Assembly: GCA_904397895.1 (NCBI GenBank)
Contig: CAJFOZ010000083.1
Span: 4,616-68,615 of the forward strand
DNA from: an uncultured Clostridia bacterium
GTDB lineage: Bacteria > Bacillota > Clostridia > Oscillospirales > Acutalibacteraceae
Length of the DNA: 64,000 bases
Reading direction: 5' to 3'
Shown: positions 2,340 through 52,142 of the stretch, one piece after another
How positions within the stretch are numbered: the first letter of the stretch is position 1
Layout: the number at the start of each line of letters is the position of its first letter
The notes under the pieces: generated by a model
Seen by the model: only the letters and a program-made list of their open reading frames with translations
Told to the model about the DNA's origin: nothing
The model's database searches: none
Program-made: the position numbers and the translations under genes

Positions 2340-4871
2340 TTATGCTGTTTCGATGCTGTTGTCGGCCTGAAGGTTTAACTTCTTCACCGCTTCCTCCCGC
2401 ATCTTGTACTTTAGGATTTTGCCGGCTGCGTTCATGGGGAATCCATCCACAAAGTCCACATACCGAGGCGTTTTGTGTTTAGCCATATGGGTGGATACGA
2501 ATTCTTTCAGTTCCTCCTCGGTCATGGTCTCGCCGGGCTTGAGCACCACGCAGGCCATGATCTCCTCGCCGTATTGCTTATCCGGCACGCCAATGACCTG
2601 CACATCCGATACCTTGGGATGGGTATAGATAAAGTCCTCGATCTCCTTGGGATAAATATTCTCACCGCCACGGATGATCATATCCTTGATGCGGCCGGTG
2701 ATCTTGTAGTTGCCGTTTTCATCCCGGCGGGCCAAATCGCCGGTGTGCAGCCAACCGTCTTCGTCAATGGCGGCGGCGGTGGCTTCGGGCATCTTGTAAT
2801 ACCCCTTCATGATGTTGTATCCTTTGGCCACAAATTCGCCGTCCACATTGTCGGGAAGATCTTCGCCGGTTTCCGGGTCCACGATCTTACATTGGACGCC
2901 AAACATACTGCCGCCCACTGTATTGACCCGGACGTCCAGGGAATCGGTGGTCTTGCTCATGGTGCATCCAGGAGAGGCCTCGGTCTGGCCGTAGGTGATG
3001 CAGATTTCCTTCATATTCATCTTGTCGATGACATCCTGCATGACTTTAATGGGGCAGGGGCTGCCGGCCATAATGCCGGTACGCATGTAGCTGAAATCGG
3101 TTTTGGGGAAATTCTCGTGCCCCAGCATAGCGATAAACATGGTGGGGACGCCGTGGAAGGCAGTGATATGTTCTTTGTTGATGCATTCCAGCCCTAAGCG
3201 AGGGGAGAAAGCGGGGATGGGGGACATAGTGGTGCCATGGGTCATAGCGGCAGTCATGGCCAGCACCATGCCGAAGCAGTGGAACATGGGGACCTGGATC
3301 ATCAACCGGTCGGCAGTGGAGAGATCCATACAGTCTCCGATGGCCTTGCCGTTGTTGACCACATTATAGTGGGTCAGCATGACGCCCTTGGGGAACCCGG
3401 TGGTTCCGGAAGTGTACTGCATATTGCACACATCGTGCTTATGGATGGCGGCTGCACGGCGGTATACATCCTCGATCGGCACCTTTTCGGCCAGGGCCAA
3501 GCTTTCCTCCCAAGTGTAGCATCCCTTTTGGGCGGAGTCTACGGTGATGATATTGCGCAGGAAGGGGAGGCGTTTGATGTGCAGGGGCTTGCCTTTTTCA
3601 GCCGTTTCCAGTTCGGGACACAGCTCCTTGATGATCTGGATGTAGTCGGAATCCTTGTACCCGTCGATCATGACCAGGGTATGGGTATCCGACTGGCGCA
3701 GCAGATACTCGGCCTCATGGATCTTATAGGCAGTGTTGACGGTGACCAATACCGCGCCGATTTTGGTGGTAGCCCAGAAGGTGATGAACCACTGGGGAAC
3801 ATTGGTGGCCCAGATGGCTACGTGATCCCCAGGTTTGACCCCCATGGCGATGAGGGAACGGGCAAAGGTATCCACATCGTCCCGGAATTCCTGGTAGGTG
3901 CGGGTATAATCCAAAGTGGTGTAGCGGAAGGCGTACTGGTCGGGGAACTCCTCCACAATACGGTCCAGCACCTGAGGGAAGGTCAAATCAATCAGATGCT
4001 CCTTGGGCCAGACGTATTTACCGGTTTTGGCGTTGTTGTCGTAAAGGCGGCGATCCTCTACCGGGGAATCCATATATTGGCTCATGAAATTGGCATAGTG
4101 GGGGAAGACGATACCGGCGTCGTTTAAATCCGGGGCGTATTGTTTGAGCCATTCCAGGGATACATAACCCTCGTAGTTGATGGATTTCAAGGCCCGGATG
4201 ATGGATTTCATAGGCAGATCGCCTTCGCCCATCATGCGGTAGGATACTTGTCCATTTTCCATTACGGAATCCTTAATGTGGGCATACTTGATGTAAGCCC
4301 CAAGATTCTGTACTGTCTGTTCGGGCGTCTCTCCAGCGAAACGGTAGGGGTGATGGATGTCCCACAAAGCGGCCACGTTATCGCTCTCGATCTGATCCAA
4401 CAGATTGCGCAGGCGGGCGGTGTCGGTGTAAACGCCGTTGGTCTCCACCAAAAGGGTCACGTCCTTCTCCTCAGCGTAGGGAGCTAGTTCCTGCAAAGAG
4501 GACAGCACCAATTGATCGTCCACTTCCCCCTGGGGAGCGGCCGTCAAGTCGCCCAGGACACGGATGTAGGGCGTGCCCAGCTTATGGGCCAAATCCATGT
4601 ATTGCTTTAACTCCCGGATGGTCTCCTCTTTGCGGTCGGCGAATTTAAGGGAGCATCCCGAAGAGAGACATGGGATCTCCAAATGGAGTTTTCTAAGCTG
4701 TTCGATGGTTTTGGGTAGATTGTTTTCCTGAAAAGGACGGCCCGATATGGAAAAGATCTCATTGTCCAGCCCACGGACCTCAATACCCTGGAATCCAAAG
4801 TCTTTGGCCATGGAATAAATGTCCGGCCAATCAAAATCCGGACAACCTAATGTTGAAAACGACAGTTTCAT
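2340..4871 (-). CDS. Fusion of xylose-isomerase-like/AP-endonuclease-2 TIM barrel and AMP-forming acyl-CoA synthetase
   Basis: N-terminal ~270 aa with LVET, WDIHH, HIKD and SLEW metal motifs; C-terminal QYTSGTTGFPKG, YGQTE, LHTGD, GRIKDMIIRGGENIYP and PMNAAGKI ANL motifs; AGGAGG RBS. Confidence 0.9.
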   Translation of the reverse strand: MKLSFSTLGCPDFDWPDIYSMAKDFGFQGIEVRGLDNEIFSISGRPFQENNLPKTIEQLRKLHLEIPCLSSGCSLKFADRKEETIRELKQYMDLAHKLGTPYIRVLGDLTAAPQGEVDDQLVLSSLQELAPYAEEKDVTLLVETNGVYTDTARLRNLLDQIESDNVAALWDIHHPYRFAGETPEQTVQNLGAYIKYAHIKDSVMENGQVSYRMMGEGDLPMKSIIRALKSINYEGYVSLEWLKQYAPDLNDAGIVFPHYANFMSQYMDSPVEDRRLYDNNAKTGKYVWPKEHLIDLTFPQVLDRIVEEFPDQYAFRYTTLDYTRTYQEFRDDVDTFARSLIAMGVKPGDHVAIWATNVPQWFITFWATTKIGAVLVTVNTAYKIHEAEYLLRQSDTHTLVMIDGYKDSDYIQIIKELCPELETAEKGKPLHIKRLPFLRNIITVDSAQKGCYTWEESLALAEKVPIEDVYRRAAAIHKHDVCNMQYTSGTTGFPKGVMLTHYNVVNNGKAIGDCMDLSTADRLMIQVPMFHCFGMVLAMTAAMTHGTTMSPIPAFSPRLGLECINKEHITAFHGVPTMFIAMLGHENFPKTDFSYMRTGIMAGSPCPIKVMQDVIDKMNMKEICITYGQTEASPGCTMSKTTDSLDVRVNTVGGSMFGVQCKIVDPETGEDLPDNVDGEFVAKGYNIMKGYYKMPEATAAAIDEDGWLHTGDLARRDENGNYKITGRIKDMIIRGGENIYPKEIEDFIYTHPKVSDVQVIGVPDKQYGEEIMACVVLKPGETMTEEELKEFVSTHMAKHKTPRYVDFVDGFPMNAAGKILKYKMREEAVKKLNLQADNSIETA

Positions 4872-4900
4872 TTTCCGTTCCTCCTATTTTTTATCCGATT

Positions 4901-49908: not shown

Positions 49909-50502
49909 GTGGATACAAAGATTACCGAGATTGCAGAGCGGGTGCATGCTTTGCGGGAGATTATGGACATTTCCCAGGAGGAGATGGCAGAGGTATGCGG
50001 CCTTTCCTTGGAGGAATACCAAAAGCGGGAGGAGGGCAAGGTGGATTTTAGCGTCACCTTCCTTTACAACTGCGCAAGCCGGTTCGGCGTGGATTTGATG
50101 GAGCTGATGACCGGAGAGACCCCTCGTCTCAAGAAGTATTCCTTGGTGCGCAAGGGCAAGGGCATGGACGTCAAACGCCGCGAGAGTTTTGTGTATGAGC
50201 ATATGGCCTACAGCTTCGCCAACAAAACGGCCGAGCCCTTTTACGTGGAGGCCCCCTATTTGGAGGAGCAGCAGGATAAACCCATTCAGCTCTCCACCCA
50301 CGAGGGCCAGGAATTTGACTATATTTTAGAGGGAAATTTAAAGGTGTCGGTGGATGGACACACCGAGATCATGGGACCCGGCGACGCCATTTACTACGAT
50401 TCCGGGACGCCTCACGGCATGATTGCCGTCGGCGGTCAGAAATGTGTATTTCTCGCAGTTGTCATCAAAAATCCGGAAGGGAAGGAATCAGAGTCATGCT
50501 AA
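49909..50502 (+). CDS. XRE-family HTH plus cupin transcriptional regulator
   Basis: [46 protein letters not shown] cupin; GTG start after AGGAGG. Confidence 0.9.
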
Positions 50503-52142
50503 ACATCCATCAGCGTTACTGCAAAGAGACTTACGATGAAAAGGGCATCCTGTCTAAATTTGAGGCGGTTGTGCCGGAGGACTACAATTTTGCCTACGAT
50601 GTGATCGATGAGATCGCCCGGCAGGAGCCGGACCGCCGGGCCATGGTTTGGTGCAACGACAAAGGGGAGGAACGCACCTTCACCTTTGGCGATTTCAAGC
50701 GGTATAGCGACAAAGCCGCCAACGTCTTCAAGGCCCACGGCATCGGCAAAGGGGATAAGGTTATGCTGGTGCTCAAGCGCCATTACCAGTATTGGTTTGC
50801 CATTTTGGCATTGCATAAGTTGGGCGCCGTCACCATCCCGGCCACCCATCTGCTGACCAAAAAGGATTTTGTCTACCGGTTCAATGTGGCCGATGTCAAA
50901 GGCATTGTGTGCACGGCCGACGGCGAAGTATCCGAACATGTGGAAGCGGCGTTGCCGGAATGCCCCAGTCTCAAAGTGATGCTGCTGGCCCGGGGCAAAA
51001 AGGACGGATGGCTGAACTTTGACGACGAGGTGGAGGCCGCCTCCGATCAATTTGAACGGGTCCAAACAAAATCCTCCGACACCATGTTGGGTTATTTTAC
51101 CTCCGGCACCACCGGATACCCCAAACTGGTGACCCACAATTACAGCTATTCCGTGGCCCATATTTTGACCGCCAAACATTGGCAGAATATCAAACCCGAC
51201 GGCCTCCACTTGACGGTATCCGACACCGGATGGGGCAAAGCCGCTTGGGGCAAACTCTACGGCCAATGGTTTATGGAAGCCGCCATTTTTGTGTGTGACT
51301 TCACCAAGTTTACGCCGGCGGAACTGCTGCCCTTGTTTAGCAAATACCACATCACCACCTTTTGCGCGCCGCCCACCATCTATCGCTTCTTCATCAAGGA
51401 AGATCTGACCCACTATGATCTCAGCTCCTTGGAATACGCCTGCATCGCCGGCGAGGCCCTCAATCCGGAGGTTTACAATCAGTTTTACAAGGCCACCGGT
51501 TTGCGCCTGATGGAGGCGTTCGGCCAGACCGAAAGCACTGTGTTGGCCGCCAACACGGTGGGAATGATCCCCAAGCCCGGCTCCATGGGAAAATCCTCCC
51601 CGCAATACGATGTGGATATTTACAATGAGGACGGCACCAGAGCCGACAACGGCGTGGTAGGCGAGATCTGCGTCAAGGTGGGGGACGGGCACCCCCACGG
51701 TTTGTTTGAGGGATATTACCACAACCAAGAGATCACCGACCGGGTGTGGCACGATGGGCTTTACCACACCGGCGACACCGCATGGCGGGATGAGGACGGC
51801 TATCTGTGGTACGACGGCCGCACCGACGACATCATCAAGTCGTCCGGCTACCGCATCGGCCCGTTCGAAATTGAAAGCGCCTTGATGGAGCATCCGTCGG
51901 TGCTGGAATGCGCCATCACCGGCGTGCCCGATCCCATCCGCGGCCAGGTGGTCAAGGCCACCATTGTGTTGGCCAAGGGGTATACCCCTTCGGAGGAACT
52001 GAAAAAAGAGCTGCAAAACCACGTAAAGCGTTCCACCGCCCCCTATAAATACCCCCGTGTGGTGGAATTTGTGGACGAGCTGCCCAAGACCATCAGCGGC
52101 AAGATCCGCCGTGTCCAGCTGCGGGATTCCGATCAAAAATGA
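50496..52142 (+). CDS. AMP-forming short/branched-chain acyl-CoA synthetase
   Basis: [58 protein letters not shown]. Confidence 0.92.

Follow-up and report, generated by a model that had tools for sequence, protein, structure and literature searches.

Two acyl-CoA ligase loci behind T-box leaders

The 64,000-nucleotide stretch analyzed here (the window), from contig CAJFOZ010000083.1 of an uncultured Clostridia bacterium, contains two loci about 45 kb apart at which a promoter-like site and a T-box riboswitch leader precede a gene for an acyl-CoA synthetase, called ligase 1 and ligase 2 below (Table 1). At locus 1 the T-box is followed by a single protein of 843 amino acids (aa), composed of a TIM barrel and an AMP-binding ligase; the order at locus 2 is T-box, XRE-cupin gene, ligase 2 and luxS. 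A preliminary description, made from the sequence alone, had pointed out the layout shared by the two loci, which holds in outline, but had overlooked both the barrel fusion and the XRE-cupin gene.

Table 1. Features of the two ligase loci, with positions in the window
Feature	Position	Strand	Description
Promoter-like site, locus 1	5215..5243	-	SigA-type, TTTACA-17-TATAAT; 11/12 consensus bases
T-box leader 1 (Leu)	4932..5187	-	Stem I, stems II/IIA-B/III, antiterminator with UGGU bulge near 4968; RF00230 90.4 bits, E 2.2e-18
Specifier 1	5098..5100	-	CUG (Leu), then G and closing helix GGGA/UCCC
Intrinsic terminator, locus 1	4911..4948	-	Overlaps antiterminator; folding z -4.98
Barrel	4077..4871	-	Xylose-isomerase-like TIM barrel, N-terminal in the 843-aa fusion; PF01261, aa 22-242
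Ligase 1	2340..4001	-	AMP-forming acyl-CoA synthetase domain; predicted isovalerate:CoA ligase
Promoter-like site, locus 2	49471..49499	+	SigA-type, TTGACA-17-TATACT; 11/12 consensus bases
T-box leader 2 (Ile)	49510..49764	+	UGGU bulge near 49733; Rfam RF00230 92.0 bits, E 8.8e-19
Specifier 2	49597..49599	+	AUC (Ile), then C and closing helix GGAG/CUCC
Intrinsic terminator, locus 2	49751..49778	+	Overlaps antiterminator; folding z -4.62
XRE-cupin	49909..50502	+	XRE-HTH and cupin protein; first gene after Ile T-box; overlaps ligase 2 start
Ligase 2	50496..52142	+	MacsMa-like acyl-CoA synthetase; 548 aa from ATG 50496; Gly247, Trp251; predicted 2-methylbutyrate:CoA ligase
luxS	52161..52640	+	18 nt after ligase 2

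Both leaders match model positions 1-219 of RF00230, including stem I with its AG bulge and GNUG loop and stems II, IIA/B and III, and in both an antiterminator with a UGGN bulge overlaps an intrinsic terminator, the arrangement expected of a T-box. These observations confirm that the two T-boxes are real. Both score slightly below the gathering score of the model (93, a curation threshold and not a biological feature) and are for this reason overlooked by a default Rfam search, which at gathering score reported two tRNAs and no T-box in the window; they were recovered by searching on E-value. Eight of the 13 T-boxes of the source genome, to which a second search added none, score below 93, those of leuB, cysS, thrS and alaS among them. 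The UGGU bulge was dropped as a discriminator, since the Trp boxes of the genome carry UGGU as well.

Specifier codons

The specifier was read as the three bases at positions -4 to -2 before the closing helix, which gives a leucine codon in leader 1 and an isoleucine codon in leader 2, the same two codons as in the preliminary description. Read by eye in this register, all 11 other T-boxes of the genome specify an amino acid that matches the function of the gene behind them: leuA CUG, leuB CUC, ilvB-ilvH-cimA-leuCD AUC, tyrS UAC, pheS UUC, three trp boxes UGG, cysS UGC, thrS ACC and alaS GCC (leu, ilv and cimA names were tested; synthetase and trp names come from reading translated N-termini). 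A specifier script called six of these 11 boxes identically to the reading by eye and missed five of 13 control boxes; it also put two relatives at UCU where the eye reading is CUC. The cognate tRNAs are present in the genome, tRNA-Leu(CAG) with A73 and tRNA-Ile(GAU).

The register is supported by covariation. In an RNAalifold alignment of 24 Leu-type leaders, two of them from one genome, the closing helix was recovered unaided; it is paired in every one of the 24 rows, and each of its four pairs shows compensatory changes. In 26 Ile/Val leaders the pairing of the named helix reaches 97%; none of 500 shuffles did as well on four of five measures, and the slid controls all fell below it too. 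Folded as a single sequence, leader 2 favours another pairing and its specifier loop is not recovered, so the register of T-box 2 rests on covariation in relatives. Switching between CUC and CUG is synonymous in frame 0 only. The +1 frame was rejected: it reads Trp in the window, Ser in relatives with CUC-N or AUC-N and a stop in relatives with CUG-A or GUA-G, and this inconsistency leaves frame 0 as the only one giving a single amino-acid class throughout.

The other branched-chain boxes of the genome have an arrangement of their own. An Ile (AUC) T-box precedes ilvB-ilvH-cimA-leuC-leuD (locus L022; G000 C48:1610-7658), which places the citramalate route to isoleucine under isoleucine control, and a Leu box of its own stands before each of leuA (contig C19) and leuB (C68). 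The 13 T-boxes include none before leuS, ileS or valS; all five branched-chain boxes precede supply genes (genome 86% complete).

Conservation of leaders and ligases in relatives

A panel of 61 genomes, all of them kin, was searched. Ligase 1 is present in 35 of the 61; 30 of these had their loci examined, and there all 19 readable T-boxes before the ligase or its operon specify leucine (16 by script, three by eye), one box was not read and no T-box was found in 10 genomes. Named genomes supplied at least 603 further ligase 1 loci, of which the 80 best were read: the leader has CUC at 54 (44 by script, 10 by eye), two lack stem I in the stretch read and no box was found at 24. These 80 include loci from Thermoclostridium, Ruminiclostridium, Sporomusa, Pelotomaculum and Syntrophomonas.

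Ligase 2 occurs in 45 of the 61 genomes. In a set of 70 copies (two partial copies excluded, two added from the named-genome search) 24 stand behind an Ile box and 11 behind a Val box (GUA or GUC; two read by eye), and for 35 no box was found. Five ligase 2 homologues (L099, L120, L134, L136 and L137) group on a branch of their own, for which neither a T-box nor, in the genomes concerned, VorB (see below) was found; this branch probably has a different function.

In genome G040 one stretch holds an Ile box with ligase 2, a Val box with ligase 2, vorBAG, a LeuA-like gene, barrel-ligase 1 and an amidohydrolase, and similar clusters occur in G012, G028 and G050. The loci that lie 45 kb apart in the source genome thus form one cluster elsewhere. 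The leucine and isoleucine pairing pointed out in the preliminary description is conserved in relatives, where it extends to valine.

Ligase 2 and its neighbors

The two ligases are 25.5% identical and carry the motifs GGENIYP and SSGYRIGP, from which the preliminary description took them to look like different subfamilies. Among solved structures ligase 2 matches best the medium-chain acyl-CoA synthetase MacsMa of Methanosarcina acetivorans (PDB 3ETC, E 5e-219), and in the alignment to 3ETC it keeps W251, Y452, R482, Y517 and Y519, which comprise the equivalent of the pocket residue Trp259 and CoA-site residues of the CBAL type. According to passages of PMC10455477, MacsMa prefers 2-methylbutyrate, with Trp259 critical for substrate binding; it completes both half-reactions with this acid and not with many others, and it adenylates propionate. 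The top NCBIfam model is MbcS (NF047394), at 487 against a cut-off of 850, so that we do not class ligase 2 as MbcS. Parts of PMC10026030 describe Staphylococcus aureus MbcS as activating 2-methylbutyrate and isobutyrate, and isovalerate poorly, and as supplying FabH.

Enzymes of the MacsMa/MbcS type thus accept 2-methyl-branched acids and isovalerate poorly, which would explain why isoleucine and valine share one ligase family and leucine uses another. No further ligase 2 copy was found in the source genome; accordingly the genome has no valine branch, or its genes lie outside the assembled sequence, or the Ile-led enzyme takes on this task as well.

Of 62 locus pairs scored, among which some genomes are counted twice, 26 have the XRE-cupin gene and ligase 2 joined as an in-frame fusion. 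Such fusions suggest that the XRE-cupin protein may act on ligase 2, as well as or instead of on DNA. luxS was seen next to ligase 2 only in the three genomes of the source genus; this adjacency is probably incidental, and luxS may be transcribed under the Ile T-box.

A predicted pocket position that follows the codon

Column 247 of the ligase 2 alignment is Gly in 22 of the 24 Ile-led copies and Ala in all 11 Val-led copies, and both the window enzyme and MacsMa have Gly there. It lies four residues before Trp251, one helical turn ahead of the MacsMa Trp259 equivalent; this location in the motif, together with what is generally known of adenylating enzymes, leads us to infer that it lines the acyl pocket. 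The larger side chain (Ala) goes with the smaller acid. On a FastTree tree the column splits all five independent Ile/Val contrasts into Gly and Ala, which no other column does among the 406 that are free of gaps; on a quick IQ-TREE tree the Val label requires at least seven changes.

Ligase 1 and the fused barrel

The nearest NCBIfam model of ligase 1 is PRK12583 (NF009233), which it matches at 702.6 against a cut-off of 832; with the family threshold not reached, we classify it solely as an AMP-binding (PF00501) ligase. Its homologues lie in leucine/isovalerate catabolic operons in two of four plasmid records, from Paracoccus yeei and Bacillus velezensis, and not in the other two. A sugar-phosphate isomerase by the Paracoccus homologue was discounted, being on the opposite strand and in a different operon. 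Homologues in such liu/yng-type operons could mean that both ligases help to degrade branched acids or amino acids as an energy source, with the T-boxes incidental, and 2-oxoacid:ferredoxin oxidoreductases of the Vor type often run oxidatively. We regard this as extremely improbable, as T-boxes turn genes on under shortage and codons that stay conserved among distant Bacillota are not incidental; moreover, no acyl-CoA dehydrogenase was found in the source genome (86% complete), which speaks against catabolism.

The fold of the barrel, predicted from an alignment (pLDDT 94; a single-sequence prediction with pLDDT 48 was not used), resembles sugar isomerases and dehydratases (TM about 0.76-0.79). 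A profile scan assigned it to no named enzyme family at cut-off, and a fold search and the ESM Atlas gave generic isomerase/epimerase neighbors only. The putative metal ligands E143, D171, H198 and E240 are all present in the window barrel, and 35 of 45 aligned copies retain the full set. The 10 rows lacking ligands all come from operons with a LeuA-like partner, which retain the Leu box and the ligase. In the 61-genome search the barrel is fused to or near ligase 1 in most genomes that carry the ligase.

This association, the fold, the conserved ligands and the lack of a characterized close relative of ligase 1 would fit an enzyme pair acting on another leucine-related acid, for instance a hydroxy or keto acid isomerized or dehydrated by a metal-dependent barrel before or after CoA ligation. 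We think this quite unlikely: the Leu box and the ligase persist in the LeuA-like-partner lineage although the ligands are lost there, distant ligase homologues lack the barrel, and co-occurrence with VorB indicates an acyl-CoA with one carbon fewer than the 2-oxo acid. The substrate of ligase 1 is the weakest link of the scheme set out below, which assigns no role to the fused barrel or the XRE-cupin protein.

The LeuA-like gene (L058:1966-3351 and 12 other loci) is co-transcribed with barrel-ligase 1 under the Leu box. Its LRDG and HxH catalytic motifs are absent in all 13 copies, and the allosteric domain is kept in the copy scanned. The 11 searched genomes with this gene all lack a leuB over cut-off; the gene itself was not found in the source genome, nor was one detected at 78 of the 80 ligase 1 loci read in named genomes. 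In G055 a gene resembling Glu/Leu/Phe/Val dehydrogenases directly follows barrel-ligase 1 (L046:4002-5075), a possible alternative amination step. Downstream of ligase 1 in the window lies a gene for a protein with TPR, SUFU and Imm33 domains (531-2090, minus strand).

The remainder of the proposed pathway and its co-occurrence with the ligases

It is long established that anaerobes of the rumen and gut make branched-chain amino acids from isoacids, which are fed to livestock for this reason. Passages of PMC7356843 and PMC10658910 trace to labelling work of the 1960s-80s the formation of Leu, Ile and Val from isovalerate, 2-methylbutyrate and isobutyrate by reductive carboxylation in rumen bacteria and methanogens. 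Applied to the window, shortage of leucine or isoleucine would leave tRNA-Leu or tRNA-Ile uncharged, the antiterminator would form and the ligase would be switched on. Ligase 1 would activate isovalerate to isovaleryl-CoA and ligase 2 would activate 2-methylbutyrate to 2-methylbutyryl-CoA; a Vor-type oxidoreductase would add CO2 with reduced ferredoxin, giving the 2-oxo acid, which IlvE would aminate to Leu or Ile.

The preliminary description had placed the oxidoreductase and the transaminase outside the window and had hoped for a T-box before the former. VorB is indeed encoded in the source genome, on contig C60 (NF005507, 550.7 against a cut-off of 399), in a vorD-B-A-G cluster comprising beta and gamma subunits and a small two-cluster ferredoxin-like open reading frame, but no T-box precedes it; IlvE is on contig C31. 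For ilvA the analysis went as far as listing four PALP matches in the source genome. Public reads amount to one RNA run, with a share of 0.09 and sparse contigs. At locus L018 (3291-4004, minus strand) a small P-loop gene, ParA/CbiA-like, heads the vorD-B-A-G cluster. Two operons with indolepyruvate oxidoreductase and phenylacetate-CoA-ligase-like genes (L025, C16:44296-48496; L026, C69:122-3734) are convergent to T-box-led tyrS and trpB and likely represent a parallel aromatic amino acid salvage route without a T-box of its own.

VorB follows the ligases closely. Of the 35 genomes that carry ligase 1, 34 also have VorB and the remaining one is 89% complete, versus 7 of 26 without ligase 1; for ligase 2 the figures are 39 of the 45 genomes with the ligase versus 2 of 16 without it; in five of the six ligase 2 genomes that lack VorB the copies form their own branch without a T-box. 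Within the fetched ligase loci themselves, vor genes were seen in 12 genomes. Among 49 genomes at least 90% complete, ligase 1 and VorB occur together in 15 of 20 without leuB and in 13 of 29 with leuB. Ligase 2 and VorB occur in 18 of 23 such genomes without ilvD, two weak ilvD matches (1e-104 to 1e-108) being counted as absent. The salvage route appears to replace de novo pathways in many relatives.

The last of these counts bears on the substrate of ligase 2, for which the preliminary description had named 2-methylbutyrate or propionate. If the enzyme activated mainly propionate, propionyl-CoA would pass to 2-oxobutyrate and by the IlvBCD route to Ile; IlvBCD and an oxidoreductase (POR) of the size of pyruvate:ferredoxin oxidoreductase are present in the source genome, and propionate is among the acids adenylated by MacsMa. 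Since ligase 2 and VorB persist in most near-complete relatives without ilvD, Val-led paralogues exist that differ at the pocket, and MacsMa finishes both half-reactions with 2-methylbutyrate but not with many other acids, 2-methylbutyrate is the likelier main substrate and propionate is very unlikely in that role.

A use in lipid synthesis must also be weighed, in which the ligases would supply branched acyl-CoA primers for membrane fatty acids, as S. aureus MbcS does, and T-box control would spare scarce Leu and Ile from lipid. MbcS is the top model for ligase 2, it feeds FabH (PMC10026030; PMC11167679 is also cited for this role), it rises twofold in a codY mutant (PMC13041820, in part), and the source genome has one FabH-type gene. 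Primer supply leaves unaccounted for the tight co-occurrence and clustering with vor, the one dedicated box per amino acid and the retention of the ligases in genomes without leuB or ilvD. As the principal function it is unlikely; lipid priming may well draw on the same acyl-CoA pool in a secondary role.

Assessment of the proposed route

Starting from the observed leaders, codons, gene identities, conservation and co-occurrence, we propose, with a probability of about 0.7, that the Leu and Ile T-box-gated ligases activate isovalerate and 2-methylbutyrate as precursors of leucine and isoleucine; induction, substrates and direction of flux we infer from sequence comparison. The genome checks called for in the preliminary description turned out to favor its reading. 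With less assurance, and leaning only slightly in its favor, we suggest that these loci belong to a widespread, undescribed regulon of anaerobic Bacillota in which cross-fed isoacids are turned into Leu, Ile and Val and each activating enzyme has its own tRNA-sensing codon. Ligase 1 would then be the first anabolic isovalerate:CoA ligase, and ligase 2 would have switched repeatedly between Ile and Val duty, each time by a change of the codon from AUC to GUA/GUC paired with one from Gly to Ala at a single pocket residue.

Several observations weigh against this proposal. A genome-wide T-box search found no box before vor or ilvE in the source genome. The de novo genes leuA, leuB, leuCD, cimA, ilvB, ilvC, ilvD and IlvE are present there, making the salvage route dispensable; of the pathways that the preliminary description wished to see checked, leuABCD and cimA are thus present, the de novo Leu, Ile and Val genes are complete, and the module would be a supplement or back-up in this organism. 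T-boxes were not found at half of the ligase 2 copies and about one third of the ligase 1 loci, and because the searched genomes are kin the co-occurrence counts overstate independence. Ligase 1 has no characterized close relative in PDB (best E 8e-76), and its homologues in catabolic operons could activate acetoacetate and not isovalerate, which we take to be the case for B. subtilis YngI. The fused barrel has no task in the scheme, although its ligands are widely kept. Column 247 was selected post hoc (one-sided sign test on five contrasts, 1/32), two Ile-led ligases break its rule, and the IQ-TREE and FastTree trees are quick ones. Finally, the one FabH-type gene of the genome must be set beside the fact that MbcS, the sole characterized bacterial relative, feeds membrane lipids.

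If the proposal is true, isoacid use becomes predictable from genomes, and some apparent Leu, Ile or Val auxotrophs would be reclassified as isoacid cross-feeders. The module offers candidate genes whose riboswitches mark the amino acid that each would serve, and a prediction of substrate choice from a single residue. T-box control would be extended to a new class of targets. Cultured carriers of the Leu-box fusion exist, among them Thermoclostridium caenicola DSM 19027, Ruminiclostridium sufflavum DSM 19573 and Sporomusa aerivorans DSM 13326.

Other features of the window

Between the two ligase loci lie CoA supply genes (23198-26093), namely coaBC, an ECF S component and a type III pantothenate kinase. 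The minus strand also carries tandem tRNA-Ser genes with TGA and GCT anticodons (18591-18808) and a gene for a 2610-aa protein with a dockerin, a GLUG motif and N- and C-terminal regions of peptidase M26 (10146-17978).

Comparison with known systems

Full-text literature searches, judged by titles and the starts of abstracts, returned nothing relevant on T-box control of an acyl-CoA synthetase, an oxidoreductase or vorB. A study by Vitreschak from 2008 may mention T-box-led oxidoreductase genes in clostridia and may have priority. The term 'CoA' is absent from the main texts of the T-box surveys PMC2494555 and PMC7778990, whose supplements, like TBDB, may list such genes. Reductive carboxylation in rumen bacteria and methanogens has the same chemistry as proposed here, and the passages of PMC7356843 and PMC10658910 devoted to it name no ligase genes or regulation.

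With MacsMa, ligase 2 shares the equivalents of Trp259, Tyr460, Arg490, Lys519, Tyr525 and Tyr527 (by a deduced numbering offset) and the Gly at position 247; MacsMa differs in being archaeal and without a T-box, and its Lys461 is Arg in ligase 2. MbcS of S. aureus resembles ligase 2 as its top model, as a scavenger of 2-methylbutyrate and isobutyrate and in rising when branched-chain amino acids are perceived as low, but its product goes to membrane lipids and its control is indirect, through CodY instead of a T-box. The PRK12583/YngI-type ligases, the nearest model for ligase 1 (703 bits), have homologues 44-50% identical to it that adjoin genes for isovaleryl-CoA or acyl-CoA dehydrogenase, carboxylase and HMG-CoA lyase; ligase 1 differs in scoring below the cut-off of 832, in its TIM-barrel fusion, in its starvation-type control and in that no dehydrogenase was found in the genome.

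As T-box riboswitches, the two leaders have the full leader anatomy, the usual specifier register, the UGGN bulge and the terminator. The leuA, leuB and ilvB-ilvH-cimA-leuCD boxes of the genome bear the same codons as the ligase boxes, leuB in its synonymous form CUC. The usual targets of T-boxes are tRNA synthetases, enzymes of de novo synthesis and transporters, whereas those in the window are acyl-CoA ligases: a conserved regulatory and metabolic module of known parts, and a new kind of T-box target.

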